From positions 3,136,001 to 3,200,000 of the forward strand of contig CAVOJR010000001.1 of assembly GCA_963696295.1 (NCBI GenBank): a stretch of 64,000 bases of DNA, written 5' to 3'. The stretch is from an uncultured Chlamydiae bacterium (GTDB taxonomy: Bacteria > Chlamydiota > Chlamydiia > Chlamydiales > JAJFMB01). The notes under the pieces were generated by a model. It ran no database searches. It had not been told where the DNA came from and saw only the letters and a list, made by a program, of their open reading frames with translations. A program made the translations under genes and the position numbers. Positions 18,128-44,281 of this stretch are shown piece by piece (positions within the stretch are counted from its first letter, which is position 1; every line of letters begins with the position of its first letter).

Positions 18128-20608
18128 ATGGACAGACGCAGCTTAATTTTTGTTATCGCTCTTTCTTTAACCCTTTTAGGTGTAAACACTTTTTTCCAAT
18201 GGTTAAACCGCGGAGAAGTGGAAAAATGGCAGGAGCAGCAAAAAGCCTCCCTTGTCCTCGAAGAAAAGGAGCTTGCCGCCCAAGTCTCCGAGCATACCGC
18301 GAAGCCGCAAGACCTGCCGCTTGTCGATCTGTTCGCCGACGAAGCGGGCCAAAATTATATCGGCCGGGGCGTCAAAGCCGGCGATACCGTGCTCACCCTT
18401 TCCTGGGCCTCGGAACTGCCTAAAACTTTATTCAGCCGACCCTCGAACACCGAAAAAGCGTTGGAAAAAGTTGAAATTGCCTTTGCTCCGGAAAAACTGA
18501 AAGAACTCGCTGTTTACCGCTCCAAGCCCGAAGCGAAAATTCCCCTGGGATCCCTCCCCGCCAGCGGCCACTACGAACTTCAGCTGATAGAATTGCCTAA
18601 AGGCGAAATTGCTCTTGGGGAATATACTGATGGAGAATTATCAATACCCGCTGAACAGCTGCAGAAAATACGCGTCAGACTGGGGGAAGCAAAAGACATG
18701 GGCAAAGTCGGCAACGCCGTTGTCCTTTTCAAATCCACTCCTGTCGCAGTCTATGCGAGCGACACGAATTCTTTAGTCATGATCGAACATATCTTCAATC
18801 TCGGCTCACTCATTTCCGCTCCCGAAGCCAAAAAGGGTTTGAAAGCCGGAGAACGCTCTTCTGAAAAATTCTATGTGCTCGAAAATGACTACCAGCAGCT
18901 GGTCTTTTCCAATTACGGCGGTGCGCTGGCTGAGATCAATTTGCCCTTTAAAAACGAAAGCAACGACCGCAGCGTCGTCAGAGAGATCCAATTTGACCGC
19001 GACATGGTTAAAAACCACTCCTATAACGCCTACTTTCCGCAACACCCCTTTTACATTGCGGGCGTCGATAAGGAGCAGCCAAAAGGAAAACTTGGCGGCT
19101 ATTACCCCTTGATCCGGCGCGATCTGATCGAATCTTCGAGCGGAAAATCCGTCAGAGTGGTCCCCTACTTTTACGCCCTTAACTTTATCTCGGAATACCC
19201 TGAAGTTTCGGAGATTGTTTTTGATGTGCAATCTTTTACGAAAGATAAAATTGTCTTTGTCGCCAATCAGACTCACCGCCGCATCACAAAAACCTACTCG
19301 ATTGCCGGACAGGAGAATGGAGCTCCCTATTGCATCGATTTGACTATTCAGATCGAGGGGGATTCGCGCGGTCTGTGGCTCTCAAGCGGCGTGCCTGAAG
19401 TGGAAATGATCTCCGGCTCCCCGGCGCCTGCGTTGAAATACCGGATTTTGAAAAACAACAACAAATCTGAAGTGAATGAAATTTCTCTTCCGAAAGACAC
19501 AGCCACCGTTACCACGGTCAATCCCGATTGGATCAATACGGCAAACGGCTTTTTCGGCCTGATTGTCGATCCGCTGACAAAAATCGAACCGGGGTACCGC
19601 GTCCAGTATGTATCCGGCACTGTCGTCCCTTCAAGACTCGTTGAAATCGACCCTGAGTACAACCTTTTCAAGGCTCAAAATTTGCCCGGCTATATGGCTA
19701 TGCTGCCGATAAAATCGCGCAATGGAAGCTTGACTTTCCGCGTCTTTGCCGGTCCCTTCGCTGACAATATCTTAAAAACCGTCGACAGAACCTTTACCGA
19801 TCCGGCCACCGGAGCCAGCCCCCAATATGTTGATGTGCAAAGCTTTCATGGCTGGTTTGCCTTTATATCCGAACCGTTTGCGAAGTTCCTGTACATCGTG
19901 ATGAACTTCTTCCACAGCCTCACCAACTCGTGGGGTATTTCGATCATCCTCCTTACGGTTTTCCTCCGCCTGATGCTCTACCCGTTGAACGCCTGGTCCG
20001 CCCGCTCAATGGTAAAAATGCAGGAAATAGCCCCCAAAGTGCAGGCTATCCAGGAAAAGTATAAAAACGATCCGCGCAAATCACAACTCGAAATCATGAA
20101 TCTCTACCGGGAATCGGGAGCGAACCCCTTCTCCGGCTGCTTTCCGATCCTGATACAAATTCCGTTTCTGATCGGGATGTTCGGTTTGCTGAAAACCACG
20201 TTTTCTTTACGAGGAGCCAGCTTTATTCCCGGATGGATCAATGATCTCTCCGCCCCCGATGTGCTCTTCTCATGGGACAAACCGATTCCATTTTTCGGAA
20301 CCTCTTTCCATCTGCTTCCCTTTATTTTAGGCCTGGTTATGTTCATACAGCCGCGATTGACTTCAAACGCGCCCAAAGATCCGAATCAGATGACCGAGCA
20401 GCAAAGGCAGGCCCGCGCCATGGGGAACATCATGTCTGTCGTCTTTACGGCGATGTTTTATAATTTCCCCTCCGGCCTTAACATCTATTGGCTCTTCTCC
20501 ATGCTCCTCGGCATGCTGCAGCAGTGGTGGACGCAAAAGCAAATGGAAGCGAGAAAGGGAGCTGTTGTCATCGAAGCGAAACCGGCCAAGGCAAAAGCAA
20601 AAAAATAA
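18128..20608 (+). CDS. yidC: Membrane protein insertase (long chlamydial form)
   Basis: MDRRSLIF N-terminal TM, WGISIILLTV..R, GCFPILIQIP, DLSAPD and PSGLNIYW motifs. Confidence 0.95.
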   Translation: MDRRSLIFVIALSLTLLGVNTFFQWLNRGEVEKWQEQQKASLVLEEKELAAQVSEHTAKPQDLPLVDLFADEAGQNYIGRGVKAGDTVLTLSWASELPKTLFSRPSNTEKALEKVEIAFAPEKLKELAVYRSKPEAKIPLGSLPASGHYELQLIELPKGEIALGEYTDGELSIPAEQLQKIRVRLGEAKDMGKVGNAVVLFKSTPVAVYASDTNSLVMIEHIFNLGSLISAPEAKKGLKAGERSSEKFYVLENDYQQLVFSNYGGALAEINLPFKNESNDRSVVREIQFDRDMVKNHSYNAYFPQHPFYIAGVDKEQPKGKLGGYYPLIRRDLIESSSGKSVRVVPYFYALNFISEYPEVSEIVFDVQSFTKDKIVFVANQTHRRITKTYSIAGQENGAPYCIDLTIQIEGDSRGLWLSSGVPEVEMISGSPAPALKYRILKNNNKSEVNEISLPKDTATVTTVNPDWINTANGFFGLIVDPLTKIEPGYRVQYVSGTVVPSRLVEIDPEYNLFKAQNLPGYMAMLPIKSRNGSLTFRVFAGPFADNILKTVDRTFTDPATGASPQYVDVQSFHGWFAFISEPFAKFLYIVMNFFHSLTNSWGISIILLTVFLRLMLYPLNAWSARSMVKMQEIAPKVQAIQEKYKNDPRKSQLEIMNLYRESGANPFSGCFPILIQIPFLIGMFGLLKTTFSLRGASFIPGWINDLSAPDVLFSWDKPIPFFGTSFHLLPFILGLVMFIQPRLTSNAPKDPNQMTEQQRQARAMGNIMSVVFTAMFYNFPSGLNIYWLFSMLLGMLQQWWTQKQMEARKGAVVIEAKPAKAKAKK

Positions 20609-20632
20609 GGCCAAAAATAAGGCCAAAAATAA
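20584..20632 (+). repeat. Stop-anchored mini tandem repeat of the yidC end
   Basis: Gene end GGCCAAGGCAAAAGCAAAAAAATAA followed by GGCCAAAAATAA twice. Confidence 0.7.
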
Positions 20633-20661
20633 CACTTGTTCCAATTGTATCTCTGGTTTAA

Positions 20662-20737
20662 TTTATACCTAAACAACTTGAAGAGTTTGTTAAGGAACCT
20701 ATCCAATTCCCAACTCTTCAAGTTGTTTGGGTATAAA
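20662..20737. mobile_element. 76-bp MITE-like palindrome upstream of dnaA
   Basis: 26-bp inverted repeat TTTATACCTAAACAACTTGAAGAGTT / AACTCTTCAAGTTGTTTGGGTATAAA with one mismatch. Confidence 0.7.
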
Positions 20738-20760
20738 ACTCTTGAATTGGAATGTAACGT

Positions 20761-22137
20761 ATGCAGGCTTGGGAAAATTTCTTAAAGAGTCAGATTACCG
20801 AGATCGGCAAAGAGGCTGTGCAAAAATGGCTGAAGCCCCTGAAAATCCTGCGCTATGACGCCCAAAACCTCTATCTGGAAGCCAAAGACACCTTCCAGGC
20901 CCTTTGGTTTGAAGAGCATATCCGCCCGAAAACCAAAAGCATAACCAATAACAATAACCGCCCCATCCGAATCCACTTAGCTATTGCCAACCAGGTCAAA
21001 GTCGATCCTAAAAAGCAAAAAGAGACTCCCAAACAAACAATCCCTCCCTTTAAAATCACCTTTGAAGAGCTCTCCCCTCACTGTACTTTCGAGCAATTTT
21101 TAGTGCATGAGGGCAACTTGCTCGTCTATAAATTGCTTTGCAAAGTGACGGGCTATGATGCCGAAAGCCATAAACTTATTCCGGGAGCCGCCGAACTGGT
21201 CTCCTTTAACCCTATATTCCTGCATGGCCCGTCGGGCACCGGGAAAACCCATTTATTGATGGCTGCCGCTCAAGCCTTAAAAGATCGCTCTTTAAATGTG
21301 CGGTATATACGCTCGGAAAGATTTACGGAACATGTAGTGGCCGCCATTAGAGCCGGTGAAATGAGCGCCTTTCGGCAAGCCTACCGCACGATTGATGTTC
21401 TGATCATTGACGATGTGCATATTTTCTCGCGCAAAAGAGCCACCCAGGAGGAATTCTTCCACTCCTTTAACGCTCTGCACCTCACGGGCAAACAAATTAT
21501 CATCAGCGCCAATTGCCTGCCCTCAGAGCTCGCCCATATCGAGCCGAGGCTCATCAGCCGCTTCGAGTGGGGCATTGTGCTCCCCTTAGAACGGGCTGAC
21601 GAGGAGGCAGCCAAAAAAATTATCCTGAAAAAGGCCGCGGCGCTGAAATTCCCCATCTCCCAAAAAGTGGTGGATTATTTGGTGAACACCTTCAAAAGCA
21701 ACATGAAAGCTTTGTGCCGCGCGCTCGAAGCTTTAATTTTGCGCATCCATTTGCAGGAATCTTCCGTTTACAGCAATCACCCGGAAAATATACCGCTCCC
21801 TCTGGTTAAGCATCTTTTGGCGGACCTGGCGCGGGAAGAGGAGCGCTACGTGTTGACGGCGGATATGATACTGGAAAGCGTCGCAGGGCATTTCGAAGTT
21901 GAAAGGGAAGAGATCACCGGCAAGGCGCAGAGCCGCGATTGCGTGCTGCCCCGCCAAATCGCCATGTATCTTTGCCGCAGCCAATTAAAAATGTCCTACA
22001 CAAAAATTGGAGATCTCTTTGAACGGGATCACTCTACTGTGATGACCAGCGTAAAGAGAATCCAAAAAGATTTTGACGAGGACGACAAGGATTTATTGAT
22101 GCATTTACACGCTATCACCAAGAGTTTGACCCCATGA
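20761..22137 (+). CDS. dnaA: Chromosomal replication initiator
   Basis: [36 protein letters not shown] and RDHSTV motifs. Confidence 0.96.
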
Positions 22138-23459
22138 AAAAAGATTACCGAATCGTCGACGACATAGACATCGCCTCAGAGAAAGGACAGGAGCTTGCCA
22201 GATGGGGGAGGCAGGAGATCAATCTCGCGGAAAAGGAGATGCCCGGTTTGATGGCTCTTCGCTCCCAGTATGGGAATAGCAAACCCTTGAAGGGCGCCCG
22301 CATCGCGGGTTGCCTGCACATGACCATTCAGACGGCCGTTTTGATAGAAACGCTTATCGAGCTTGGCGCTAAAGTGCGCTGGTCCTCATGCAATATCTAT
22401 TCCACGCAAGACCATGCCGCAGCGGCCATGGCGGCGGCAAAGGTTCCCGTTTTCGCCTGGAAAGGGGAACCGGAAGAGCTCTATGAGTGGTGCATCGCGC
22501 AAACACTTCAATTTGATAAGGGGCCTCTCAATATGATCATCGATGACGGTGGCGATCTGACCAATTACGTGCACGACCTGCACCCGGAACTTCTCCCGGG
22601 AATTAAAGGGCTGACCGAAGAGACGACCACCGGCATCCGGCAGCTTTACAAAAGGATGAAAGAAGGGCTGCTCGGCGTTCCGGCCATCAATGTCAACAAT
22701 TCGGTGACCAAATCGAAGTTCGACAACCTCTACGGCTGCCGCGAATCGCTGCTCGACGGGATCAAACGGGCTACGGACATCATGATCGCCGGTAAAGTGG
22801 TGGTGATCTCAGGCTATGGAGATGTGGGCAAAGGGTGCGCCCAGGCCATGGCGCATCAAGGAGCCAGGGTGCTCATCACGGAAATCGATCCCATTTGCGC
22901 TTATCAGGCGGCCATGGAAGGTTATGCGGTAGTCACTATGGAAGCAGCGGCTCCAGTCGGCGACATTTTTGTGACAGCCACAGGGTGTAAAGGGGTGATC
23001 CGCAAAGGACACATGGAACGGATGAAGGATCTGGCCATTTTGTGCAATATCGGCCATTTTGACTGCGAAATCGATGTCGCGGCCCTCATGAGCGATTCTT
23101 CCATTGTGGAAACCAGCATAAAACCTCAAGTGGATCTGTTTACCTTTAAAAACGGCAAAAGATTGATCTTGCTGGCGAGAGGCAGACTGGTCAATTTGAG
23201 CTGCGCCACCGGCCATTCCTCCTTTGTGATGTCTAATTCTTTCACAAATCAGGTCCTCGCGCAAATGGAGCTTTGGCAGGCCAAGCCCGGCGCTTACCCA
23301 GTCGGCATTTATCACCTCCCTAAAATTCTCGATGAACAGGTGGCGCGCCTGCATCTGGATAAGCTGGGAGTTCACTTGACTACCCTGACGGAAGAGCAGG
23401 CCGGCTACCTCGATATTCCTGCTGACGGCCCCTATAAACCCGATTATTACAGGTATTGA
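22134..23459 (+). CDS. ahcY: Adenosylhomocysteinase
   Basis: [30 protein letters not shown] and [10 protein letters not shown] motifs. Confidence 0.97.
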
Positions 23460-23460
23460 G

Positions 23461-23489
23461 TTGCAAAAAAATAGCTACTCTGCTATAGT
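23461..23489 (+). promoter_or_regulatory. Sigma-66/70-type promoter of tRNA-Pro
   Basis: TTGCAA-N17-TATAGT. Confidence 0.7.
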
Positions 23490-23507
23490 TGTATTTTACA
23501 AGTTAAA

Positions 23508-23582
23508 CGGAGTATAGCGCAGTTTGGCTAGCGCGGCTGCTTTGGGAGCAGTAGGTCGGGGGTTCAAATCCCTCTACTCCGA
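23508..23582 (+). tRNA. tRNA-Pro(TGG)
   Basis: CGGAGTA/TACTCCG acceptor stem, GCTGC-TTTGGGA-GCAGT anticodon arm, GGTTCAAATCC T-arm; CCA not encoded. Confidence 0.95.
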
Positions 23583-23592
23583 CAAAATTATC

Positions 23593-23630
23593 AGCTCCTA
23601 ACACCGCATGCGTTTTAGGAGCTTTTTTTT
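23593..23630 (+). terminator. Rho-independent terminator
   Basis: AGCTCCTAA...TTAGGAGCT followed by a T-tract. Confidence 0.75.
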
Positions 23631-23633
23631 ATC

Positions 23634-24743
23634 ATGGCGCAAGTATTAAGTTATCTATACTGGGATCCTGTAAGAGAGATGTTTTACATCCCTCTGATCG
23701 AAAGGCCTGTCATGTGGTATGGCTTTTTCTTCGTTTTAGGCCTCATGATCGGTTATTACATTATGATCCGGGTTTTTGAGCGCAAACTGGCCCAAACCCC
23801 CCAGCTTCTGATGCGCGACGTGGGCAACTGGAACGTTTTGATGCGGCAGCTGAGGCGCGCTTTGCAGGAAGATATCGGAAAACTCAGCGAACTGGTAAAA
23901 ACTTTCCCAAAAGAACTGACCATCAAACTGAAAAATCAGTCCAATACGGAAACGATCAAATTAAAAGTTTTAGATGAACTCAATCAATACGGCATTGAGA
24001 GGAAAGAGTGGGAGAAACTTTTTCCCAAGGCTTTCTTTACCCTGAAGGAATTAAGCGTCAGTTTGGCTGACAAGCTGCTTTGGTTCCTCATTGCCGGCAT
24101 CCTGATCGGCGCGCGGCTTGGGCATGTCTTTTTTTATGAGTGGCCAAGATTTTCCTCCCACCCCATCGATATCCTGAAAGTGTGGGAAGGAGGGCTTGCC
24201 AGCCATGGAGGAACGATCGGCATCCTGATTGCCGTTTTTGCCTATCTTAAGGTGATAGGCCGCCAATTTCCGGAACTTAAGTTCATTGTGATGCTCGATG
24301 CGCTCTCTGTGCCTACAGGTCTTGCCGCTTACTTTATCCGGATCGGCAACTTTGTGAATCAGGAGATCATCGGCGTTCCCACATCTCTGCCTTGGGCCAT
24401 CATCTTTGGGCATCCTGCCGACGGCAGTCCTTCCGTCCCAAGGCACCCAACCCAACTTTACGAGGCAATGGCCTATCTCGGGATCTTTATTTTCCTCTAC
24501 ACCTTATGGAAGCGAAAAGCCGAGCAGCTTCGCCCGGGGGTGATCAGCGGTCTGTTTTTCATTTTGACATTTGGCTCCCGCTTTTTCTTTGAATTTACCA
24601 AAAAGCCTTTGAGCTCCATGATCGACGAACATTTCCTGCAAACAGGGCAATACTTGAGTATTCCTTTTATCATGCTCGGAATATTCCTGCTCTTTAATAA
24701 TGCGGAGCCGGCCAAAGAGACTGTCCAATATCCCCAGGTCTAG
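23634..24743 (+). CDS. lgt: Prolipoprotein diacylglyceryl transferase with internal insertion
   Basis: WYG, GARLGHV, WEGGLASHGG, RIGNFVNQE and HPTQLYE motifs. Confidence 0.95.
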   Translation: MAQVLSYLYWDPVREMFYIPLIERPVMWYGFFFVLGLMIGYYIMIRVFERKLAQTPQLLMRDVGNWNVLMRQLRRALQEDIGKLSELVKTFPKELTIKLKNQSNTETIKLKVLDELNQYGIERKEWEKLFPKAFFTLKELSVSLADKLLWFLIAGILIGARLGHVFFYEWPRFSSHPIDILKVWEGGLASHGGTIGILIAVFAYLKVIGRQFPELKFIVMLDALSVPTGLAAYFIRIGNFVNQEIIGVPTSLPWAIIFGHPADGSPSVPRHPTQLYEAMAYLGIFIFLYTLWKRKAEQLRPGVISGLFFILTFGSRFFFEFTKKPLSSMIDEHFLQTGQYLSIPFIMLGIFLLFNNAEPAKETVQYPQV

Positions 24744-25118
24744 GCCTCCAAAGCCACCAGTCTAGTCACCCCTCGGCCGCAGAAGCAGAAGTATTCCTAA
24801 AGCCACAACCAGGCCCCAATAAGTGAGCCAATATCAGTATAGTCTCGCCTCGGCCGCAGGAGCAGAAGTATTCCTAAAGCCACCCGATAAGTGAGCCAAT
24901 ATCAGTCTAGTCACCGCTCGGCCGCAGGAGCAGAAGTTTTCCTAAAGCCGCCCGATAAGTGAGCCAATATCAGTCTTGTCTCGCCTCGGCCGCAGGAGCA
25001 GAAGTTTTCCTAAAGCCGCCCAATAAGTGAGCCAATATCGGTCTAGTCTCGCCTCGGCCGCAGAAGCAGAAGTATTCCTAAAGCCACCACCAGGCCGCCC
25101 GGGTAAGTGAGCCAATAT
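24725..25118. repeat. Tandem array (77, 68, 68, 68 bp plus the gene copy) duplicating the converging lgt/ResB-like gene ends
   Basis: Units start at 24758, 24835, 24903, 24971 and 25039; CCAATAT at both edges. Confidence 0.95.
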
Positions 25119-26965
25119 TTTGCAGGGTCCCTATTCACCACCAGCTGAATGCGCTGTATTGAGGTCTCCTCATGGGGATAAATGTGCGACAGATAAAACC
25201 GGTAGCCATCCCAAGTCTCATGCACCTCGTTCATGCTCACCGTCTTTTCCACTTCCGTCTGATTTTTCAAGTCGGTAATCAACAAATCGCTCTCATAGCT
25301 ATAAGCCTGATCCATTTGCGGATAGTTGATTTGCCGCGCATCCCTCAACCTTATTTTAAAGGGAATGCGCCTCATCTCAGGGCGGAAACTCATAAGGAAA
25401 CCCCCTCGCGGCCAGCTGAGGCCCTGCCCGTAGGGATCATAAAGCAAAGTCTGATAAAGCCCCTCTTTTGTTTTTACCACGATCATGGGCCGGTTATCTT
25501 CCAATTTTTTTAGGGGCTCCAGGGGTTCATGCCGCACGGTCAGCGGACACTCAAAACTCATCCGCTCTTCAAAGGAAATCCCCAATTGCCCTGGGTCAAC
25601 GCCATATACCCTGAGATAAACCGAGAGCATCTGCTCTGATGAGGACTCTTGAGGGGGGGCGGGAAGCTCCTCGGCGACCATAAATACCTGCTGCAAAAGA
25701 GCGGTAATTAGTTCTTCTGGGTCTTTGATGTGTTCCACGAGGGAGGCGAGCGGCCAGTTTTTCAGATAGGCGGCCAGATCCTGCCCTCTCTTCATCCCCT
25801 CCTCCAGCTCATTCAGCAAATAAGCCCCCCACTGAGCCCCTTTTCTTTCCCGCTCGCTCACCTGGCTCCAGTCCTGGTTTAAATACAATTTCAGCGGAGG
25901 AGGCAGGCTTTCCGCTTGTTCGAGGATTTTTTTTTCGCGGGTGGACCGGTCATAAGGAAAAGGGAATTTTGCCGCCGCGCTATAGCCGCTAAAACCTTTG
26001 TCATAGGCGATATAGTGATCCAATTTGTCCCCAGGGAAAACCTTGGAAAAAAAGTGTCCGTAGGCGTCAAAGGCGTAAAAATGGGTATCTCCCTTCAGGT
26101 CTTTGACAAAGAGCAGTTTCGGAGTAGTCGATAAATCTGCGGCGAGCTCCTTATAGGGGAGGTTCAATAAGGCTTGATCGCCGGTCAGAGGAATGGTTAT
26201 GCCCAAATGATGCAGCGCTGGCCCCTCCCAATCAATCGCTCCATCAAATGGCCCTTCAAAGACAATTTTTTTGCTCTTCCGGTCGCTCAGACGGAGGAGA
26301 AGCCCCTCCAGGTAGACTTTCTTCGCCACTTCCATCGGATCGGCGGCATGATAGGCGTAAAGATCCCAATGATCGGCAAGGTCGCCTGGAATTTTCATCC
26401 GGGAGGAGACTTGCGCCTTTCCCTCATAGGGGTAGACCGGAAAGGGCTGAATGCCATCGAGAAAAGCAAAATTCCCTTTGATCCAGGTTTCATAGCTTTC
26501 CTTGCCGTGGGGATAAAAATGAACGATTTCCAATCCCTCCTCAACCTGGTCCAGGGGATATTGCCGCTGGCTGCCATTTTGATTTTGCACATGGAGCCGC
26601 TCCGTGCCGGGGATGATCAGCGTATCCGAGGAGGTTCCCTCCAGCAAGCCCATCTGCCCTTGCGTCCCTTTGATATTTTTGATCATGACTCCCCCGATGA
26701 TCATCAACAGACCTAAATGGGTGATCAAAAAGGGGATATGTTTGCTCTTAAAGGGCCATCTTCTTAGGGCGGACACCAGGATGTTCACAAAAAAAAGGGA
26801 GAGCAAAAAGAGAAAAACGGGATTGCTGTAAGCAAGGGAGGCGGCGTAAAGATGGGAGCCGGTAAAGCTTTCGGCCAAAGTGCCGGCGATGACGATCAGG
26901 GCCGAAGAGGCGATCAAACCGACAGCCAAATAAACACTGCCTAAAAAATAAACGATTTTCTTCAC
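25043..26965 (-). CDS. ResB/CcsB-like cytochrome c biogenesis protein
   Basis: N-terminal TMs with THLGL; C-terminal VSMN...GYRFY...RDPAKYWLTYPG. Confidence 0.75.
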   Translation of the reverse strand: MKKIVYFLGSVYLAVGLIASSALIVIAGTLAESFTGSHLYAASLAYSNPVFLFLLSLFFVNILVSALRRWPFKSKHIPFLITHLGLLMIIGGVMIKNIKGTQGQMGLLEGTSSDTLIIPGTERLHVQNQNGSQRQYPLDQVEEGLEIVHFYPHGKESYETWIKGNFAFLDGIQPFPVYPYEGKAQVSSRMKIPGDLADHWDLYAYHAADPMEVAKKVYLEGLLLRLSDRKSKKIVFEGPFDGAIDWEGPALHHLGITIPLTGDQALLNLPYKELAADLSTTPKLLFVKDLKGDTHFYAFDAYGHFFSKVFPGDKLDHYIAYDKGFSGYSAAAKFPFPYDRSTREKKILEQAESLPPPLKLYLNQDWSQVSERERKGAQWGAYLLNELEEGMKRGQDLAAYLKNWPLASLVEHIKDPEELITALLQQVFMVAEELPAPPQESSSEQMLSVYLRVYGVDPGQLGISFEERMSFECPLTVRHEPLEPLKKLEDNRPMIVVKTKEGLYQTLLYDPYGQGLSWPRGGFLMSFRPEMRRIPFKIRLRDARQINYPQMDQAYSYESDLLITDLKNQTEVEKTVSMNEVHETWDGYRFYLSHIYPHEETSIQRIQLVVNRDPAKYWLTYPGGLVVALGILLLLRPRRD

Positions 26966-28007: not shown

Positions 28008-28021
28008 ATACACCTCCAAAA

Positions 28022-28187: not shown

Positions 28188-28283
28188 AATTACGAATAGA
28201 ATATTTTACCCGATTTCACCCCAAATTTAAAAGAGATTTCTTTTTACTGTAAAAAAAAATTATATCTCAGTAAATACAGACTT

Positions 28284-30914: not shown

Positions 30915-32026
30915 AAGAAGAGATTAAAGTCCCCGCTATGGGAGAGTCCATTACCGAAGCGGTCATCGGCTCTATCTTAAAACCGGAAGGCTCCCAGGTA
31001 GAAGCTGAGGATGAACTCATCGAGTTAGAGACTGATAAAGTCAACCAGGTGCTTTACGCTCCGGCTTCCGGCACCATATCCTGGAATGTCCGGCCGGAGG
31101 AGGTCGTCAAAATCGGCCAAGTGATCGGCTCGATTGATAAAGCGGCAAGGGCGGAAAAGCCGCCTGAAGTCAAAGTCGAAGTAAAACCGGAAGTTAAACG
31201 CGAAGTCAAACCGGAAGTTAAACCGGAAGTTAAACGCGAAGTCAAACCTGTCACGACCGGTCCGAAAGCGAGAATTTTCAAAGAGGAAGCCTTACAGGAA
31301 AAAGAGCAGCCCAAACCCAAACCAGCTGGAACCGAAACGCGTAAAAAAATGCCTAAAATCCGGAAAATTATCGCCGAGCGCCTGGTTGAAGTGCAGCAAA
31401 ATACGGCCATGCTGACCACCTTTAACGAAATCGACCTCTCCGAAGTGATGGCTGTGAGAAGCCGCCACAAAGACAGCTTTGAAAAGGAGCATGGGGTAAA
31501 GCTCGGATTTATGTCCTTCTTTGTAAAAGCTGTGGTTTCGGCCCTGCAGGCCATCCCCGAAGTCAACGCCTACATCGACGGGGATGAATTCGTCCAAAGA
31601 CATTATTACGATATCGGCATTGCCGTAGGAACAGACCGGGGACTGATCGTGCCTGTTGTGCGCGGCTGCGACAAATTGACATTTGCCGAAATCGAGCAGA
31701 GCATCGTGAACTTTGCCAAGAAAGCCCGCGAGGGAAAAATTTCCGTCGATGACCTTCAAGGAGGCGGATTCACCATCACGAATGGGGGAGTTTATGGATC
31801 GCTGCTCTCTACCCCGATCCTCAACCCTCCCCAAAGCGGCATTTTGGGGATGCATAAAATCTTGAACCGCCCTGTAGCCGTTGACAACCAGGTAGTGATC
31901 AGACCCATGATGTATGTCGCGTTAAGCTACGACCACCGGATCATCGACGGGAAAGAAGCGGTGACTTTTCTCGTGCATATCAAAAATCATCTGGAAGATC
32001 CCGCCAAACTCCTTTTAGACACCTGA
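30911..32026 (+). CDS. sucB: Dihydrolipoamide succinyltransferase E2
   Basis: Lipoyl ETDKV and YDHRIIDG motifs. Confidence 0.97.
31166..31249 (+). repeat. 12-bp coding repeat (EVKP/EVKR) in the sucB linker
   Basis: About seven GAAGTYAAANNN-type units. Confidence 0.85.
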
Positions 32027-32033
32027 GGTAAAC

Positions 32034-33404: not shown

Positions 33405-33405
33405 A

Positions 33406-34389
33406 ATGAAGGCTATTGTCGTCAGTCACTATGGGGAACCGGAAGTTTTAAAACTGCAAGAGGTGGAAATCGGAAAACCCGGGACTGGGCAAGCGCTCGT
33501 CCGTCTGGCAGCAGCCGGAGTGAACTTTGTTGAAATCTATCAACGGCGGGGCACCTACCCAAGAAAACTGCCCTATATCCCCGGATCTGAGGCAGCGGGC
33601 GTGGTGGAGGCTGTCGGAGAGGGCGTGCCGCAATTTAAGCCCGGGGACCGGGTGGCTTATGTGCACGAGCCGGGCGCTTATGCCGAGGCCAGTTTGGTCA
33701 GGGCCGACCGGCTGATTCCCTTGCCCGCCGATTTTTCTTTCGAACAGGGAGCGGCCTTTCCGCTGCAGGGAATGACAGCGCACTACCTGCTTCATGAATT
33801 CCGCAAGCCGAAACCGGGCGATGTCGTGCTGATTCACGCAGCCGCAGGGGGCATGGGGCTTTTGCTTGTGCAGTGGGCCCGCCACTTAGGCGCGAGGGTG
33901 ATCGGAACGGTTTCCACAGAGGAAAAAGCTAAGGCGGCGCGGGAAGCGGGAGCCTCGGATATCATTTTCTACACGAAGCAAAATTTTGCCGAAGAGATCA
34001 AGTCTTTGACTAATAATCATGGGGCGGATCTGATCATTGACGGCGTTGGTAAAACGACCTTTCAAGGAAACCTGGAAGCCGCGGCTTTGCGTGGAAATAT
34101 TGTCATTTTCGGAGCGGCGAGCGGACCGGCGGATCCGATCCCGCCAAACACTTTAATGCCCCGTTCGCTGACCCTTTCGGGAGGCAGCTTGCCGAACTAT
34201 CTGTTGAGCCGCGAAGAGCTTTTATATCGCGCTCAGGCGGTAATTAAAGGCGTTCAGGAGGGGTGGCTGAAGTTGCGGATAGATAAGGTTATCCCGTTGG
34301 CCAAGGCGGCTGAGGCGCATCGTTTGCTTGAGAACCGCCAGACGATAGGGAAGGTCATACTTGATATTTCGCTTGAGACTTATAAGTAA
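33406..34389 (+). CDS. qor: NADPH:quinone oxidoreductase (zeta-crystallin family)
   Basis: GVNF, PGSEAAG, HAAAGGMG and AHRLLE.RQTIGK motifs. Confidence 0.88.
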   Translation: MKAIVVSHYGEPEVLKLQEVEIGKPGTGQALVRLAAAGVNFVEIYQRRGTYPRKLPYIPGSEAAGVVEAVGEGVPQFKPGDRVAYVHEPGAYAEASLVRADRLIPLPADFSFEQGAAFPLQGMTAHYLLHEFRKPKPGDVVLIHAAAGGMGLLLVQWARHLGARVIGTVSTEEKAKAAREAGASDIIFYTKQNFAEEIKSLTNNHGADLIIDGVGKTTFQGNLEAAALRGNIVIFGAASGPADPIPPNTLMPRSLTLSGGSLPNYLLSREELLYRAQAVIKGVQEGWLKLRIDKVIPLAKAAEAHRLLENRQTIGKVILDISLETYK

Positions 34390-34435
34390 TATTTTGCTAA
34401 ACTTAATATAGTTTAATGTTCTTCAGGATAACAAA

Positions 34436-35015
34436 ATGATTTCCAAGTTTCTTGACCCGCAAAAATGATGTTGCATTCAGAAAAATTTTTGGTTCAGAAA
34501 AGAATAAAGATATTCTTATTCATTTCCTCAATGACATGGTTACTTTTAAAGAGAATGGCCCCATCACGCAAGTGCCTTTTTCGAAAAACAATCCAAGACA
34601 CTGAGACCGCTGCCCACAAGACCAGCATCGTGGATATCTTATGCAAAGACGATAAAAATAACACTTATATCGTTGAAATGCAAGTGGCTAAAGAAAAAGG
34701 ATTTGAGAAAAGAGCCCAATATTACGCCTCGAAAGCCTACATTTCCCAGGCACATGTCGGCGGGGAGTTCCATCATCTTAAAGAAGTGATTTTTTTGGCG
34801 ATTGCAGACTTTGTCATGTTCCCCCAAAAAAAAGATTATAAATCAGATCATGTTATCTTAGATAAAAAAAGCCTCGAGAACGACCTGAAAGATTTTTCCT
34901 TTACATTTCTGGAGCTTCCTAAATTCCATAAAGAGGTTGATCAACTGCCAATATGACCGAAAAATGGGCCTATTTTTTTAAACACGCTGAAGAAATGTCG
35001 GAACAAGATCTTCTA
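34436..35015 (+). pseudogene. Frameshifted Rpn/PD-(D/E)XK nuclease-transposase family gene
   Basis: MISKFLDP / NDVAFRKIFG / VDILCKD...IVEMQV...KRAQYY / EKWAYFFK fall in shifting frames; truncated. Confidence 0.85.
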
Positions 35016-35264
35016 AAACGCACCAGCTCTATCAGGTTTGACAGAGTGGCTTAGAGTAAGATCGTTTTACCTTGGAACCAAACTTTAAATGTGCGCAGTC
35101 CAAAGAAAATTTGTCTTCAATGGCGCGCGGAATGCCGACTTTTTAAAGCCAAATCAAAAATTTGGGCGATTTCATCCGAGCCATAATTCTTTTTTAAAGA
35201 ATCGACAACCTCCGCACTAATTCCTGCTAGGAGACTCACAATAATATAAATTATCTTAAGTATA

Positions 35265-35297
35265 TCATGCTGTCTCTTTACTAAAGAGACAGCATGA
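35265..35297. terminator. Perfect 16-bp inverted repeat downstream of the iscA-like gene
   Basis: TCATGCTGTCTCTTTA-C-TAAAGAGACAGCATGA. Confidence 0.7.
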
Positions 35298-35319
35298 ATC
35301 AAATAGACAAAAATATCAG

Positions 35320-35877
35320 CTAATATCCGTGCGAGGAGCCGCAGCCGCAGGAAGAGCGCACGTTCGGATTCGAAATTTTAAATCCGGAATTTTGCAGCGC
35401 ATCGATATAATCGATTTCGGAGCCTAGCAACCGGGGCACCTTCTTCTTGTTCACATGGATGGCGATGCCGTTGGAGACGAATATCTCATCATCCTCATTG
35501 GCCTTTTCCGAATAGTCGAGCATATACTCAAAGCCGCTGCAACCCGCCATCTGCTCGGACAGGCGAATGCCCCAGCCATGTTTGCCTTCTTCAGAGAGAA
35601 TACCCATATACTTCTCTACCGCGCGTCTGGTCATGGTGATCGTGCTAGGATCAGACTGCTCTTCGAGAAGGGCGTTTAACCGGCTTACCAAACGATCAAT
35701 ATGTTCTTCTGTCATGCCGTGACCCAGCATGCCGGCCTCTAAAGTTTCCCAGGTAGCCGCCTGACAGCCGACGCAATGCAATCCGGCATTGGTGATCTCT
35801 TGGGAAAGTTTTTGAGCTTTATTCGGAAACATCGAAAGAATCTCTTCGATGGTCATATCTTTGTGAATTTTTTTCAT
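35320..35877 (-). CDS. DUF1858-like domain fused to an A-type Fe-S carrier (IscA/HesB)
   Basis: GLHCVGC..A..ETLE N-domain; GCSG and CGCGSS motifs. Confidence 0.85.
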   Translation of the reverse strand: MKKIHKDMTIEEILSMFPNKAQKLSQEITNAGLHCVGCQAATWETLEAGMLGHGMTEEHIDRLVSRLNALLEEQSDPSTITMTRRAVEKYMGILSEEGKHGWGIRLSEQMAGCSGFEYMLDYSEKANEDDEIFVSNGIAIHVNKKKVPRLLGSEIDYIDALQNSGFKISNPNVRSSCGCGSSHGY

Positions 35878-35888
35878 GTGTTACATCC

Positions 35889-36155
35889 TTAGAAACAAAT
35901 TTTTACATTACCTTTGCGAATTTTACACTGGCAAGCCAACCGCTCATCTTTGGTATCGGCGCCCAGAAAATCCTCTTCCTCTTGGGTCGGGGGCGAAAGA
36001 TTCTCAAATCCCTCTTTAATTTCTATGACACAAGTTCCGCAAACCCCTTCAGTACAAGCAAAAGGAACGCCGGCTTCCTCGCAAGCCTCGGCTATCGGAG
36101 AATTTTCCTCTAATTCCACTTCCTCGCCATTATGTTCAAAAATTAATTTAGGCAT
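35889..36155 (-). CDS. 2Fe-2S ferredoxin
   Basis: CTEGVCGTC...RLACQC. Confidence 0.92.
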   Translation of the reverse strand: MPKLIFEHNGEEVELEENSPIAEACEEAGVPFACTEGVCGTCVIEIKEGFENLSPPTQEEEDFLGADTKDERLACQCKIRKGNVKICF

Positions 36156-36210
36156 ATCGATCTCTCCTAGTGATTTAAGTCTAGAATTATGTAGGATAAA
36201 TTAAAAAAAA

Positions 36211-36591
36211 TCAACTAAAAATCAGAGAGGCAATTTTATAAACGCGAGAATCTGATGTGTACCTTTTAGTTTCATCCCTCTTTTGAGCCATCAAGAGTAA
36301 TTCCTTGTATATTTTTTGATATTTTTCCTTAATTTCTTTTTGGGAAATCTCCTTACTCGAAAAAACGATCTGTTTGAAGTGTTTAAACGCTTCAAACAGT
36401 TCGGCATGCAAAAGAGCGAGATAGACTTTAGCCGCTCTGCTCCCAATCTGTTTTTCCTGCCCGGGAATTGATAAAACGGAAAATTTAGGCTTTTCCTTCA
36501 TCAGTGACACTGGCATCAAAATGCCAGAAAAAATTCCATTAAAACCGGTCATACACACCTTGAAATCCTTAAAAATAAGACCATAAAGCAC
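36211..36591 (-). CDS. Hypothetical protein or gene remnant
   Basis: 126-aa ORF filling the intergenic space; weak start. Confidence 0.35.
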   Translation of the reverse strand: MLYGLIFKDFKVCMTGFNGIFSGILMPVSLMKEKPKFSVLSIPGQEKQIGSRAAKVYLALLHAELFEAFKHFKQIVFSSKEISQKEIKEKYQKIYKELLLMAQKRDETKRYTSDSRVYKIASLIFS

Positions 36592-36617
36592 TGATCTTTT
36601 TTTGAAAACTGTAAAAT

Positions 36618-37775
36618 TTAAAACTTTTTTACCAAAACCGTAATATTGTCTTCCGATCCGGCTCCAAGAGCACGGATGGCTATATTACAGGCTATCTGGG
36701 ATAAAGAGAGCCCCCGTTCGACTGAGCTCAGCACCAGCTCGCCTACCTGATTCGAAGAAGCCACGTCGAAAACCCCGTCGCAAGCCTGCACGAGATAGCA
36801 ATGCTCCCGATTTTTGGGAAGGGAAAATTTTGAAATAACAGGTCTTGGACACATCGCTCCCCTCAAGTGGTGATCCCCTAAACCGCGGCCCGGCGCGATC
36901 GAATAGGGGCTTAAAGGATGCAAAATCCTGTTGTCATCCGAGATCGCCCCGCCGCGCCCTTCGATGACATCCCGGTTTTGTTCCGGCTTTTGATCCTGGC
37001 TTAATTGGAAAGTATCATCGGGTGTCACAAAAATAGCCCGTGAATCCCCCAAGTTTACCACCCATAACGCCTCTCCGATCTGGAGGCAGATATTGGCCGT
37101 GGTACCCTCTATTTCACCCTGAAATGCGCGGTTGATATCTGCAAGAGTCAAGTTGATGGCGTTATAGATCCTTAAGTCTTTGTCTTTGAAAGGGAGGCTG
37201 TTATCGTTGAACCGCTCGGCAAATTTTGCGATAAACGCCCTCTTGGCATAATCAGAGCAGGCTTTCCCTCCATGACCATCGAAAACCGCGCTGTAGGGAA
37301 CCTCGGCCGGGATCGAATTCAGGCTCATCAGAATTAAAGCTGCTTCATGCGCGTCTTCCATCTCATTTCTTAACCCTATCGTAGAAGCTATGCCGGATCC
37401 GTTTTCCGTATGGAAATAGATTCTCGCCTCCCCAAAAAAGACGGGAACGTCAACAGATCCTTTTTGCTCGTGCAGCCTGATGGCGTCAGTGAGAAAACTG
37501 CTTTGGTACCCCTTGTCTCTCAGTTTATCGGCATTCTCCAGATTCTCTTGAAGCTCTTTTTTCACTTCCTTGCCGTCGAAGCAAACCTGGTAATCGAGGT
37601 TATCCAATACTTTTATCTGCCAGGGCAATAGATCGTCTGAAATTATTTTTGGCAGGGGAATTTGCTTGCTGTGCACAAAGTGGAAATGAATTTTGCCGGA
37701 AAAATCTTCGAAGGTCTTTTCCTCGATAACCCGCGCGGCCGGAAAATCAGGCTTAGCCGCCTTTTTGGGACACAT
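36618..37775 (-). CDS. PP2C (PPM) Ser/Thr phosphatase with N-terminal extension (start uncertain)
   Basis: RNEMEDA, VFDGHGG, NLGDSR, ACDGVFD and GSEDNIT motifs. Confidence 0.9.
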   Translation of the reverse strand: MCPKKAAKPDFPAARVIEEKTFEDFSGKIHFHFVHSKQIPLPKIISDDLLPWQIKVLDNLDYQVCFDGKEVKKELQENLENADKLRDKGYQSSFLTDAIRLHEQKGSVDVPVFFGEARIYFHTENGSGIASTIGLRNEMEDAHEAALILMSLNSIPAEVPYSAVFDGHGGKACSDYAKRAFIAKFAERFNDNSLPFKDKDLRIYNAINLTLADINRAFQGEIEGTTANICLQIGEALWVVNLGDSRAIFVTPDDTFQLSQDQKPEQNRDVIEGRGGAISDDNRILHPLSPYSIAPGRGLGDHHLRGAMCPRPVISKFSLPKNREHCYLVQACDGVFDVASSNQVGELVLSSVERGLSLSQIACNIAIRALGAGSEDNITVLVKKF

Positions 37776-37862
37776 AGGAACATCCTTTTTAACTATAGTA
37801 ATAAACATTTTATTTTTTTTTTGCAATTGGTGAAAAAAAATAATGCCTGTATAATGCCGGGC

Positions 37863-39308
37863 ATGAATCGAGTTTTGCTGGCCTTTCTGCTTTTTTTGGA
37901 ACCCCTTTCAGCTCTTGACCCCGATGTTCCCCTGTTTTATAGGGGCAGGATCCATCCGGCCAGCGCGTACGCCGCCCTTTTTCTCGAGCCTTTCTCCCAA
38001 AAGGAAAACCTGGAGACGCTCTGGCGCATGCATTTTTTAGGAGACGAGGAGCGTCCCATTTTCAAGGTTCGCGATCCGGCGCTGCGAAAAAAGTTTAAAA
38101 CCTCCCTTTTCAGCTACAATCAAATAAAAGATTTACCTGAATTAAAGGAGCCGATCCGACTCTATACCCAATTTTCCAGCTCCTCCTTTTTGGCCCTTCC
38201 CTGCAGGGGAGAATGGCGCTCTCTTAAAGCCTTGAAAAACTCCGAATTTAATTTCACCCTCTATTCCGATGCGGATTTCAGCGAAATTCAGAAGACCTAT
38301 CTTTTATTGGAGCGGGCTTATAAAAACGGGGATCTGACCGAAATCAAACAGCAGAACAGATCCTTGTCCACCCTTTTAAAAAAAGCCTACGCCTCCCTTG
38401 CCGGAAAACCGATGCAAAAAGCGCATGGCAAAGCGCTTTTCTATCCCACCACCGCCCAGCTTTATGCCGAAGGAGCGCTCTTTCGGATCCCCTTTCTCGA
38501 AGGGATACTCCTGCTTTATTTGCTAAGTCTTTGGCGTAAGCCCCCCTTTTTTGCCGCGTTCGCCCTTCTCACCGCCTTTTTGGGGCTCCGCTGCTACATC
38601 CTTAACCGCCCTCCCGTGAGCAATATGTATGAGACGCTGGTCTATGTCCCCTGGATCATCAGCGCCGCCGGACTTCTTTTCTACGCCCTTCAAAAAAAGC
38701 CCATCATCTTAAAAACCTCTGCGATCTCTTCCTCTTTTTTACTCCTGATCCTGCTTTTGGGACCTTTGGCAGACAAGCTGGAGAATGTGCAGGCGGTTTT
38801 GGACTCCCAGTATTGGCTGACGGTGCATGTGCTGATGGTGGTAGGCAGTTACGGCTTTTTTATCTTGAGCGGAGTCTTAGCCCACCTGGCGCTCTATAGA
38901 GATGAACTCGCAAAAACCGTTTTGCACTCCCTTTACATCGGCACGGGATTATTGATTGTCGGAACGATTCTCGGCGGAGTGTGGGCAGCCCAAAGCTGGG
39001 GCCGTTTCTGGGACTGGGACCCCAAAGAGTCATGGGCTTTTATCTCTGCTTGCATCTATTTGATCCTCATACACCTGTATCGCTTTAAACACATCGGCAA
39101 CTACGGACTTTGCCTCGGAGCGATTCTAGGCTTGCAAGCGATTATCTTTACATGGTATGGAGTGAATTATATTTTGGGAACAGGACTGCACAGCTACGGA
39201 TTCGGATCGGGCGGCAAGGGGATTTATTCTCTTTTTGTCCTCTTGGAAATGGCGTTTATCATTCTGAATTTGTCTTTTAATCGGAAGCGTGCTAAAATAT
39301 TGCCCTAA
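37863..39308 (+). CDS. ccsA: Cytochrome c biogenesis protein CcsA/ResC with N-terminal extension
   Basis: PVSNMYE, WLTVHV, WGRFWDWDPKE and GLHSYG motifs. Confidence 0.9.
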   Translation: MNRVLLAFLLFLEPLSALDPDVPLFYRGRIHPASAYAALFLEPFSQKENLETLWRMHFLGDEERPIFKVRDPALRKKFKTSLFSYNQIKDLPELKEPIRLYTQFSSSSFLALPCRGEWRSLKALKNSEFNFTLYSDADFSEIQKTYLLLERAYKNGDLTEIKQQNRSLSTLLKKAYASLAGKPMQKAHGKALFYPTTAQLYAEGALFRIPFLEGILLLYLLSLWRKPPFFAAFALLTAFLGLRCYILNRPPVSNMYETLVYVPWIISAAGLLFYALQKKPIILKTSAISSSFLLLILLLGPLADKLENVQAVLDSQYWLTVHVLMVVGSYGFFILSGVLAHLALYRDELAKTVLHSLYIGTGLLIVGTILGGVWAAQSWGRFWDWDPKESWAFISACIYLILIHLYRFKHIGNYGLCLGAILGLQAIIFTWYGVNYILGTGLHSYGFGSGGKGIYSLFVLLEMAFIILNLSFNRKRAKILP

Positions 39309-39394
39309 AAATATTGAAAAAAATGACCCTTTTAAACAATAATTAACTATACGGGTGCGAGAAACCTGCCCCATTGGTAAGAGCAAAAAAAGAT

Positions 39395-39856
39395 ATGAGA
39401 ACGATTAAGAGTGAACGATTAAAAAAATTGGAAGCAGAGCTGAACGATCTCCAGCAATGGTTGAAACTCGGTTTGGTTCCGAAAAAAGACATCGACAAAC
39501 ATAAAGAAGAGATCGAAGCTGTCCTCGGGAAAATTGACGAGGAAAAAGAACGCCTCCAATTCCTTAAAGAAAGCGGTGAAGCTGAAGAGTACATTGCTCC
39601 AAAACGCAACCCGACCCGCGCAGGCTATACTGAAATGCCAACGGGCTTAGATATGGACATGGGAGAAACCGGCGGGCTGACCGAAACTGGTTTCGACATG
39701 GAATCGGAAAACACCGAAAGCTCCATCATCGAAGAGCGGGAAGAAGTTGAAGAAGAGGGAAGCACCGAGACGCTTGATGAAGAAACCGACTTTTTCAGCG
39801 AAAGGCGAAACCGCTGGGGCAAAGGTATTGTGGACCCAGACGCCGACGAATGGTAG
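39395..39856 (+). CDS. Conserved chlamydial protein (CT053 homolog)
   Basis: KSERLKKLE...LGLVPKK and C-terminal VDPDADEW; adjacent to a hemN-family gene as in Chlamydia. Confidence 0.85.
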   Translation: MRTIKSERLKKLEAELNDLQQWLKLGLVPKKDIDKHKEEIEAVLGKIDEEKERLQFLKESGEAEEYIAPKRNPTRAGYTEMPTGLDMDMGETGGLTETGFDMESENTESSIIEEREEVEEEGSTETLDEETDFFSERRNRWGKGIVDPDADEW

Positions 39857-40971
39857 AAAACGGCCTCAGCCTCTACTTTCATATCCCTTTCTGCACAAAA
39901 AAGTGTCCCTATTGTCATTTCTATGTGCTGCCTGACCTTGAGCGTTTCCATAATTTATTGCTGGAAGGTCTTGAGCTCGAATGGCAAAGATATAAGGAGC
40001 TCATTTCTGCCCATACGATCCGGACAATCTACTTTGGGGGAGGCACCCCTTCGCTTCTGAAAACTGAAGAAGTGGCAGAGCTGCTTCAGATGATCCGGAA
40101 CACGCACTCTATTGACGATATTGAAATCACTTTGGAAGCCAATCCCGAATTGATGACCGAGGAGAAACTGAAGGCCTTGCGCGCGCTCGGCATCAATCGT
40201 CTGAGTTTCGGCGTCCAGTCCTTCGATGAAAAGCTTCTGACGCTTCTCGGCCGCACCCATTCAGCCCATCAGGCCAAAGAGGCGATTCAAATGGCTGACA
40301 AGGCCGGCTTTAAAAATATCTCGCTCGATTTGATGTACGATCTTCCCCACCAGACTTTTGCCGCCTATGAAAACTCGCTCACACAGGCTCTCGAGCTGCC
40401 GATTACCCACCTCTCCCTCTATAACCTCACCATTGAGCCCCATACTTCCTTTTTTAAACATAAAAGTTCTCTGACCCCCCACATACCCGATCAGGAGACG
40501 AGCCTGCAGATGTACCGCCTGTCGCAAGAAGCGGCCAAAGCAGCCGGTTTTGAACAATACGAAATTTCTGCCTTCGCCAAGCCCGGATTTTCCTCAAAGC
40601 ATAACAGCGGGTATTGGATGGGCACCCCCTTTCTTGGCCTTGGCCCGTCCGCCTTCAGCTACTATGAGGGCAGGCGCTTTCGCAATATCGCCAATATTAA
40701 CCGCTACAAGGGAGCACTGGCCAAAGGGGAGTCCCCGGTCGATTTCGAGGAGGAGCTTTCCCCGGAAAACCGTCTAAAAGAATTGCTCGCCATCCAGCTC
40801 CGCCTGATTTGCGGGGTCGATCTGGAGGCCTTTCCCCCCTTGCCGCCCGAAACCCAAAAAGGGATCAGCCGGTTAATCGATCTGCAGTTGCTGAAGAGGG
40901 AAAAAAATATTCTCTCTTTGACCGGGCAGGGAATTTTGCTCTACGATTCCGTAGCGACGGAAATAATTTAA
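39850..40971 (+). CDS. hemW: Radical SAM heme chaperone HemW (HemN family)
   Basis: YFHIPFCTKKCPYCHF, GGGTPS and YEISAF motifs. Confidence 0.9.
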   Translation: MVENGLSLYFHIPFCTKKCPYCHFYVLPDLERFHNLLLEGLELEWQRYKELISAHTIRTIYFGGGTPSLLKTEEVAELLQMIRNTHSIDDIEITLEANPELMTEEKLKALRALGINRLSFGVQSFDEKLLTLLGRTHSAHQAKEAIQMADKAGFKNISLDLMYDLPHQTFAAYENSLTQALELPITHLSLYNLTIEPHTSFFKHKSSLTPHIPDQETSLQMYRLSQEAAKAAGFEQYEISAFAKPGFSSKHNSGYWMGTPFLGLGPSAFSYYEGRRFRNIANINRYKGALAKGESPVDFEEELSPENRLKELLAIQLRLICGVDLEAFPPLPPETQKGISRLIDLQLLKREKNILSLTGQGILLYDSVATEII

Positions 40972-40973
40972 TA

Positions 40974-41510
40974 TTACTTCTTTTTCGAAGGGAGTTTGAA
41001 TTCTTTCCCGTCCGCCACAAAAACCCCATTGCCCCAATGGTGGATGGTGCGGGGCCGTTTTTTCGAGGGAGTGATCCAGGCCTTGACAACCTCAAGGATA
41101 AAGATGTTGTACTTCTCGGTCATCTTCATATCGGTCACCCGGCATTCCAGATTGGCAAAGCACTCCTTGATAAGCGGGGCTTGCACCAGCTCCGCCGGCT
41201 CTTGAGTGAGCTGGAACTTCTTGAACTTGTCGACCCGTTTGCCGGAGATGTTGCCCACGCCGACGACCTGCTCAGCCAGATCCTCTGTCGGGATGTTGAT
41301 CACGCACTCTTTGGTCTCTTTCAAGATCTCGAAGGTGTAATTGCGGTTGCTGATCACGCAAGCGACCATAGGCGGCTCAAAATCGATCATCATATGCCAG
41401 GACATCGTCATGACATTGGCTTTTTCCTTGCGCGCCGTCGAGACCATGACCACCGGGCCCGGCTCGAGCAACTGGTAGACTTTTGAGAGCGGCAATGCTT
41501 TTTTGACCAT
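40974..41510 (-). CDS. Flavin reductase-like protein
   Basis: GPVVMVST, NVMTMSW and APLIKEC.ANLEC motifs. Confidence 0.85.
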   Translation of the reverse strand: MVKKALPLSKVYQLLEPGPVVMVSTARKEKANVMTMSWHMMIDFEPPMVACVISNRNYTFEILKETKECVINIPTEDLAEQVVGVGNISGKRVDKFKKFQLTQEPAELVQAPLIKECFANLECRVTDMKMTEKYNIFILEVVKAWITPSKKRPRTIHHWGNGVFVADGKEFKLPSKKK

Positions 41511-41598
41511 GAGTTACTCCAATCTGCTTCAAAGTCACCGGCGGCGGATCCTATCAGCCCAATAACGGACATGTTCAAGGGAATAACATGAGTTTTTT

Positions 41599-42027
41599 AG
41601 CTTGTCAAACTATACAACCAATCTGGTAAATAGAACCTTCACGCGAGCCTGAAGGTTGTACGACTTGTCGAGCTCAAGCTATACAACCACTCTGGTAAAT
41701 AGCACCTTCAAGCGAGCCTGAAGGTTGTACGACTTGTCGAGCTCAAGCTATACAACCAATCTGGTAAATAGAACCTTCACGCGAGCCTGAAGGTTGTACG
41801 ACTTGTCGAGCTCAAGCTATACAACCACTCTGGTAAATAGAACCTTCAAGCGAGCCTGAAGGTTGTACGACTTGTCGAGCTCAAGCTATACAACCACTCT
41901 GGTAAATAGCACCTTCAAGCGAGCCTGAAGGGCGGGATGTACTTGTCGAGCTCAAGCTATACAACCACTCTGGTAAATAGCACCTTCACGCGAGCCTGAA
42001 GGGCGGGGTTGTACGTGTCGAGCTTGT
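41599..42027. repeat. Tandem array (69 bp x4, 71 bp, plus the gene copy) duplicating the 3' end of gene 41957-42352
   Basis: Units start with CTATACAACC at 41610, 41679, 41748, 41817, 41886 and 41957; AGCTTGT at both edges. Confidence 0.95.
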
Positions 42028-44274: not shown

Positions 44275-44281
44275 GTAAATC

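Follow-up and report, generated by a model that had tools for sequence, protein, structure and literature searches.

Tandem copies of gene ends, stop codon included, in the genome of an uncultured chlamydia: probable leftovers of small local duplications

In a window of 64,000 nucleotides from an uncultured member of the Chlamydiae, which is the whole stretch of DNA analysed (positions 3136001-3200000 of contig C1 in the source genome, G000; 3.43 Mb, two contigs, 97% complete), three unrelated genes, namely yidC, a ResB-like gene and open reading frame (ORF) 41957-42352, are each followed by serial copies of their own final codons and stop. The question that this locus raises is how such gene-tail arrays originate, and whether they do anything for the bacterium. 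We propose, with a probability of roughly 70%, that they are locus-specific copies of gene ends produced by unusually frequent small duplications of the microhomology type, and kept only where both neighbouring genes remain intact. The copies themselves are most likely harmless leftovers. Gene-end duplication proved to be genome-wide and real, but an ordinary phenomenon.

The yidC gene (60KD_IMP; 18128-20608, plus strand) ends in a 25-nt tail (20584-20608) which is the source of two 12-bp stop-containing copies (20609-20632, plus strand). These begin flush with the yidC stop, each has 13 nt deleted relative to the gene tail, and no boundary direct repeat was seen there. Array A (24725-25118, assigned to neither strand) lies at the junction of lgt (23634-24743, plus strand) and the ResB-like gene (25043-26965, minus strand). 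It includes the end of the convergent lgt, a point which the initial annotation missed: the array has as its left end the last 19 nt of that gene, beginning with the CCAATAT at 24725. CCAATAT is found six times in all (24725, 24828, 24896, 24964, 25032 and 25112), and its two outermost copies (24725-24731 and 25112-25118) are the bounds of the array. The units measure 103 (a composite with a 77-nt copy inside), 68, 68, 68 and 80 bp. Since both genes have their stops (lgt, 24741-24743; ResB-like gene, 25043-25045, minus strand) in copies of one CTAG, the founder of array A was most likely an 84-bp overlap of two convergent stops, of which the units would be eroded copies. A founder of about 84 bp had been reconstructed initially, and we obtained the same length. 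We infer the ancestral overlap from the window alone, as no relative with such a gene order was found: lgt does not stand beside ResB-like genes in loci L002-L020, and metagenome contigs scanned with query P0002 gave no related loci.

Array B (41599-42027, minus strand) contains six copies of the tail and TAG of ORF 41957-42352 (minus strand), with units of 72, 71, 69, 69, 69 and 72 bp counted outward from the gene. The 7-bp sequence AGCTTGT occurs at its two ends only (41599-41605 and 42021-42027). ORF 41957-42352 encodes 131 amino acids and matches no Pfam family. It is nevertheless a real gene: its sole homologue shows 65% identity over 132 amino acids and the identical end residue. Five of the six ResB-like homologues listed terminate no more than a few residues away from the G000 stop. 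As homologues thus end at or near the same residue for the genes of both long arrays, the stops are ancestral. The initial annotation had described serial own-tail copies behind these three genes, internal deletions in the copies, and 7-bp microhomologies (CCAATAT and AGCTTGT) bounding the long arrays; all of this is present in the sequence.

To what extent this extends beyond the window was examined with a gene set of 3081 genes from a hexamer-scored ORF caller, whose stop positions are reliable and start positions less so. Enrichment tests were confined to contig C1, except for the k-mer census of tail and head copies. At a period of at least 25 bp, a match of at least 85% and at least 2 copies, C1 carries 106 arrays (32 per Mb), and 0.9% of the genome is in tandem repeats. 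Of the 106, 27 lie inside genes and 41 in intergenic DNA; a stop is overlapped by 30, a start by 4, and a further 4 take in both. Against a null of random founders barred from gene interiors, stops are overlapped more often than expected (30 versus 14.2 +/- 3.4) and starts less often (4 versus 16.4 +/- 3.5), so that the enrichment at stop codons which the initial annotation had anticipated exists genome-wide. In-gene arrays are depleted (27 versus 84.5 expected), and their period is divisible by three in 28/28 cases, as compared with 17/34 for stop-straddling arrays. Among 84 non-genic arrays at an 80% match cut-off, convergent junctions, with 19% of the intergenic bases, account for 34 (p=3e-6), and divergent ones, with 25%, for 10 (p=0.004). 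In the k-mer census 36 of 2146 genes were followed by tail copies and 9 preceded by head copies, 7 of 1298 had mid-gene copies, and shuffled pairs had none; a looser version gave tail copies at 48 of 2486 genes, or about 1 in 50, versus 0 in shuffled pairs. Convergent ends carry them in 29 of 858 cases and codirectional ends in 16 of 1701. The units are arranged head to tail, exceed 10 bp and derive from single-copy local sequence. Just 10 array units in G000 have distant matches (more than 3 kb away), those of arrays A and B not among them, and a motif common to units across loci was not found.

A favoured unit of about 69 bp, which had been suggested initially from the two long arrays and an unrelated coding array at 12.0-12.3 kb, does not hold up. 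The latter does have a 69-bp period and is coding, being a 23-amino-acid Ser/Thr-rich repeat (12028-12325, minus strand) in frame inside ORF 10659-12743, and not a gene-tail array. The convergence on 68-69 bp that is seen in the window is contradicted by the genome-wide periods, which span 26-270 bp on C1 without a peak. Only 5/106 arrays fall at 68-69 bp, while periods of 45 and 36 bp account for seven arrays each. Periods of the 34 stop-straddling arrays run from 30 to 201 bp, with 68-69 bp in A and B only (2/34), and in the related genome G002 four of 48 arrays have this period, three of these being related to neighbouring repeats. That arrays in this window share a period of 68-69 bp is coincidental. 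Other repeats in the window are a 12/24/36-bp repeat at 31166-31248, in the part of a 2-oxoacid dehydrogenase E2 gene that separates the two Pfam domains, and adjoining 81-bp and 186-bp arrays at 63161-64000, which are of low complexity and probably coding. Two tandem S41-family peptidase genes occupy 42511-46093.

Genomes G001 and G002 belong to the same family as G000, and seven further genomes to other families. In the 1.2 Mb read of G002 (one contig, 2.05 Mb) there are 48 arrays, or 40 per Mb, with clear gene-tail arrays among them. Starts are avoided here as well (0 versus 10.3 expected); a stop excess is absent (9 versus 9.5), and the post-stop parts of the gene-tail copies are mostly long. 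No arrays were found in the 137 kb examined of G001, a 330-contig assembly in which collapse may be the cause. The seven other-family genomes yielded 5 arrays in 1.14 Mb sampled. When 742 genes of G001 and six other-family genomes were scored for tail copies there was a single one, which falls short of the stop. The lineage-wide process supposed in the initial annotation is therefore upheld in that a second genome of the family is array-rich, and not in the stop excess, which G002 lacks, nor in G001. Array richness is established only in G000 and G002, which share a family. G002 also contains a dispersed, AT-rich, MITE-like (miniature inverted-repeat transposable element) sequence of about 280 bp with short inverted ends (107 BLAST matches in 1.2 Mb, against 1 match in G000). 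It stands in tandem, in 2-4 copies, at 8 loci and has given two 86-bp derivative arrays (blocks e.g. L024, L068 and L088); tandem copies of it make up 10 of the 48 G002 arrays.

These observations suggest the following course of events. Short direct repeats, of 7 bp in arrays A and B, would be the sites between which slippage or gap repair copies segments of 25-200 bp. Copies within genes would survive only in frame and copies of starts or promoters would mostly be purged by selection, which agrees with the distributions given above, while a copy that includes the stop would not disrupt its gene and would be tolerated best where two genes converge. The spare copy then erodes through small deletions regardless of frame: comparison of copies with genes at 42 loci gives 53 deletions as against 16 insertions, and 18/53 deletions are multiples of three (p=1.0 versus one third). 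Finally, misalignment between gene tail and copy may re-expand whichever eroded unit exists, which would result in near-identical inner units of arbitrary length; the units are 85-100% alike. There are 70 synonymous and 126 non-synonymous substitutions between copies and genes, and the synonymous share of 36% fits the 35-39% expected if the gene side alone is constrained.

Several results weigh against this account. The same synonymous count (70/196) exceeds the 26% of a plain neutral expectation (p=0.003). Of 21 young two-copy duplications, only 7 have microhomology of at least 3 nt, by simple count. If the 0-150 nt upstream of starts are excluded, about 15.5 arrays are expected over stops as against the 30 observed, so the stop excess persists, although genes and RNAs that were not called are treated as free in this null, which may overstate it. 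Copies also tend to lie close behind the stop. Among hand-curated arrays, 11 of 24 have at most 10 nt after the stop versus 4.5-5.1 expected (p 0.002-0.004), the 24 having been taken, not blind, from the 34 stop-overlapping arrays with omission of seven double-stop convergent ones (array A included) and three ambiguous ones. A blind measure, which detects only copies with a tail of at least 16 nt and favours long tails, has 13 of 48 copies starting within 10 nt of the stop versus 6.4 expected (p 0.009), two of the 13 being in-gene repeats. Nor did the loss of a repair gene emerge as a cause, the tested repair genes failing to separate array-rich from array-poor genomes: recA was found in 30/31 genomes; xseA, recJ, uvrD, dnaQ-type exonucleases, ruvC and polA in 5/5 genomes tested; and recG was below the cut-off in 5/5, array-poor ones included. 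Both mutS and mutL are present in G000, the only genome covered by that search. As separate observations, a ten-copy 45-bp gene-tail array (C1:1404169-1404608) ends about 108 nt upstream of recA; a Ku gene (C1:811043-811582) is shared by 4/31 genomes (G000, G018, G019 and G022) and is absent from G002; and an RNase HI gene (C1:1724492-1724899), found in G000 only (1/31 genomes), carries a 96-bp convergent array at its own 3' end.

The closeness of copies to the stop could be explained otherwise, namely by the translation stop acting as the point of nucleation for duplications. After release of the ribosome, a stalled RNA polymerase or an R-loop just past the stop would cause a lesion, its repair by microhomology annealing would re-copy the tail, and selection would only filter the products. 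We consider this unlikely, but it is the alternative that fares best. Stop-flush junctions occur at yidC, at C1:876435, 1441513, 3002805 and 506097, and at others; the outer array end lies 0-2 nt from a stop copy in 8 of the 38 non-negative rows (52 rows in total) versus a null of 4-5%; and the stop excess survives the promoter-exclusion nulls. Moreover, RNA polymerase stalling linked to uncoupling is reported to give DNA lesions in E. coli (PMC11297953). No literature linking translation uncoupling to gene-tail duplication was found in a search outside which most subscription papers lay. Against nucleation at stops, G002 lacks the stop excess and has mostly long post-stop parts, and 41 of the C1 arrays are intergenic and 27 in-gene. 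There is no replication-strand bias (leading 15/36 versus 1284/2559), which leaves fork collision unsupported, no bias in stop-codon type (p=0.32) and no excess of downstream hairpins (p=0.76). In nine of the 11 cases with a short post-stop part the next gene is codirectional, and its promoter or ribosome site would restrict what can be copied. Erosion of the post-stop spacer against a protected stop yields an identical junction sequence, so that present-day DNA cannot distinguish the two. We favour spacer erosion, with the tail refreshed from the gene, plus selection as the origin of the stop-flush junctions. That translation ends are hotspots of DNA duplication in this chlamydial lineage, and the arrays a genome-wide fossil record of translation-directed mutagenesis, seems to us doubtful to the same degree.

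It is considerably less probable that the arrays are selected devices, whether as multi-copy 3' untranslated region (3'-UTR) or antisense RNA, as stacked promoters or terminators, or as a reserve of alternative C-termini. On the sense strand the array B unit does fold (z -2.3, and -3.6 for two units), and it holds terminator-like stems; the array at C1:248698 repeats a TTGACA box, the slight synonymous excess points the same way, and some stop-overlapping variable-number tandem repeats (VNTRs) of Y. pestis are low in diversity (PMC3689786). For the array A unit, however, folding does not surpass that of its shuffles (z -1.5), and 32 stop-straddling units resemble control gene ends (median z -0.22 versus 0.09, p=0.09). 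An Rfam search of window positions 20000-43000 matched only a tRNA and none of the arrays, there is neither a common motif nor a common Rfam family, and the host genes are unrelated. Structured 3'-UTR RNAs, one of the roles put forward in the initial annotation, therefore lack general support. Its swappable C-termini are contradicted by the in-frame share of deletions, which is that of chance, and by the 126 non-synonymous differences. Of the options that it listed, neutral slippage fits the evidence best.

Three loci may be mentioned in this connection. TTGACA stands directly after the last stop copy of array B, downstream of which lies a flavin-reductase-like gene (40974-41510, minus strand); the box was lost from the inner copies, and no full promoter was called at it. 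The array at C1:248698-249113 has about seven copies of a 60-bp unit that includes a TTGACA box; it lies between a stop, which it closely follows, and the next gene downstream, and may act as a stacked promoter. At C1:76510-76691 a 91-bp two-copy duplication lies near the end of a 1295-codon gene; the called stop is in the second copy, and the duplication is possibly out of frame with a changed C-terminus.

Footprints of transposases or integrases, such as IS630-type MITEs at TA or IS200 HUH enzymes, which would nick at stops and duplicate the flanks, are a still poorer candidate. G000 does have two Y1_Tnp genes and one 168-bp two-copy repeat with a TA overlap, and 10 of the 48 G002 arrays consist of the dispersed element in tandem. 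The gene-tail units, on the other hand, have no dispersed copies or common ends, TA-containing stops show no enrichment after control for junction class (p=0.32), and with one MITE-like query neither of two long copies was near a stop, which is a small test. The two IS200-type Y1 transposase genes (C1:3090947-3091312 and 781256-781621) have near-equal scores, and an array with 12.8 copies of a 30-bp unit is found about 580 nt from one of them. Concatemers made by a reverse transcriptase (retron, defence-associated or diversity-generating-retroelement-like) find no support, as RVT_1 (PF00078) had no match in G000; 5/31 genomes had one, and divergent reverse transcriptases could escape such a search.

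An assembly or amplification artefact, which is suggested by the fact that both array-rich genomes are assemblies of 1-2 contigs while the fragmented G001 of the same family had no arrays, can practically be dismissed, as short-read contigs of run X1 contain both long arrays, copies share patterned substitutions and deletions, and the single-contig G019 has only 1 array in 400 kb, which shows that long contigs alone do not yield arrays. Run X1 may be the source sample, and runs X2-X4 are without coverage of array B. A 167-nt X1 contig is identical to 24809-24975 of array A (zero differences, 2.4 units), and a 99-nt contig spans an array B junction at a depth of 8.5 versus 2.4 in the flank (about 3.5x). 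The three gene-tail arrays of the window are genuine.

Repetitive extragenic palindromic sequences and bacterial interspersed mosaic elements (REP/BIME), mycobacterial interspersed repetitive units (MIRU) and MITE arrays are frequent immediately behind stops and in the space between convergent genes, and have one sequence across many loci. Unlike these, the gene-tail units are each copied from their own gene and have no distant matches.

The initial statement that no named system matches was too strong, since both stop-overlapping VNTRs (PMC3689786) and microhomology-mediated tandem duplications (MTDs; PMC13167724) have been described. The pattern most likely belongs to these known phenomena, as repeats derived from MTDs or as stop-overlapping VNTRs. 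According to PMC13167724, single-copy segments between short direct repeats duplicate and expand in bacteria, are mostly neutral and are depleted from coding DNA. The likeness lies in the origin of the units from single-copy local sequence, the 7-bp boundary repeats at arrays A and B, and the depletion from coding DNA. They differ in that 3-10 copies are common here, whereas more than two are rare in that text, which does not treat stop codons in the part available, and in that the founders here are heavily eroded, with microhomology clear at some loci only. In Y. pestis, 10 of 88 VNTRs contain a stop codon, the ORF being said to remain unchanged by copy number, and 6 overlap starts and are more constrained (PMC3689786); the motifs listed there are mostly of 8-45 bp, as against 30-200 bp with serial internal deletions here.

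The intracellular Ehrlichia ruminantium has a lineage-specific excess of long-period non-coding repeats with a mean period of 139 bp (PMC3287509, PMC10710844 and PMC7343930). These repeats make up 6.3% of its genome versus the 0.9% in G000, a comparison between different settings of Tandem Repeats Finder. Tandem repeats of Borgs begin within ORF ends (PMC9879509); they are near-perfect, A-rich and carried on archaeal extrachromosomal elements, while those described here are chromosomal, 85-100% alike and eroded by deletions. For chlamydiae, no report of gene-tail arrays was found in a literature search that left most subscription papers outside.

The arrays provide a natural example of gene structure acting as a filter on small duplications. 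Such duplications lengthen spacers and separate overlapping convergent genes, and the arrays would serve as markers for strain typing. Should the excess of stop-flush junctions be mutational in origin, the finding would matter more, since translation termination would then be tied to where DNA rearranges in this chlamydial lineage.

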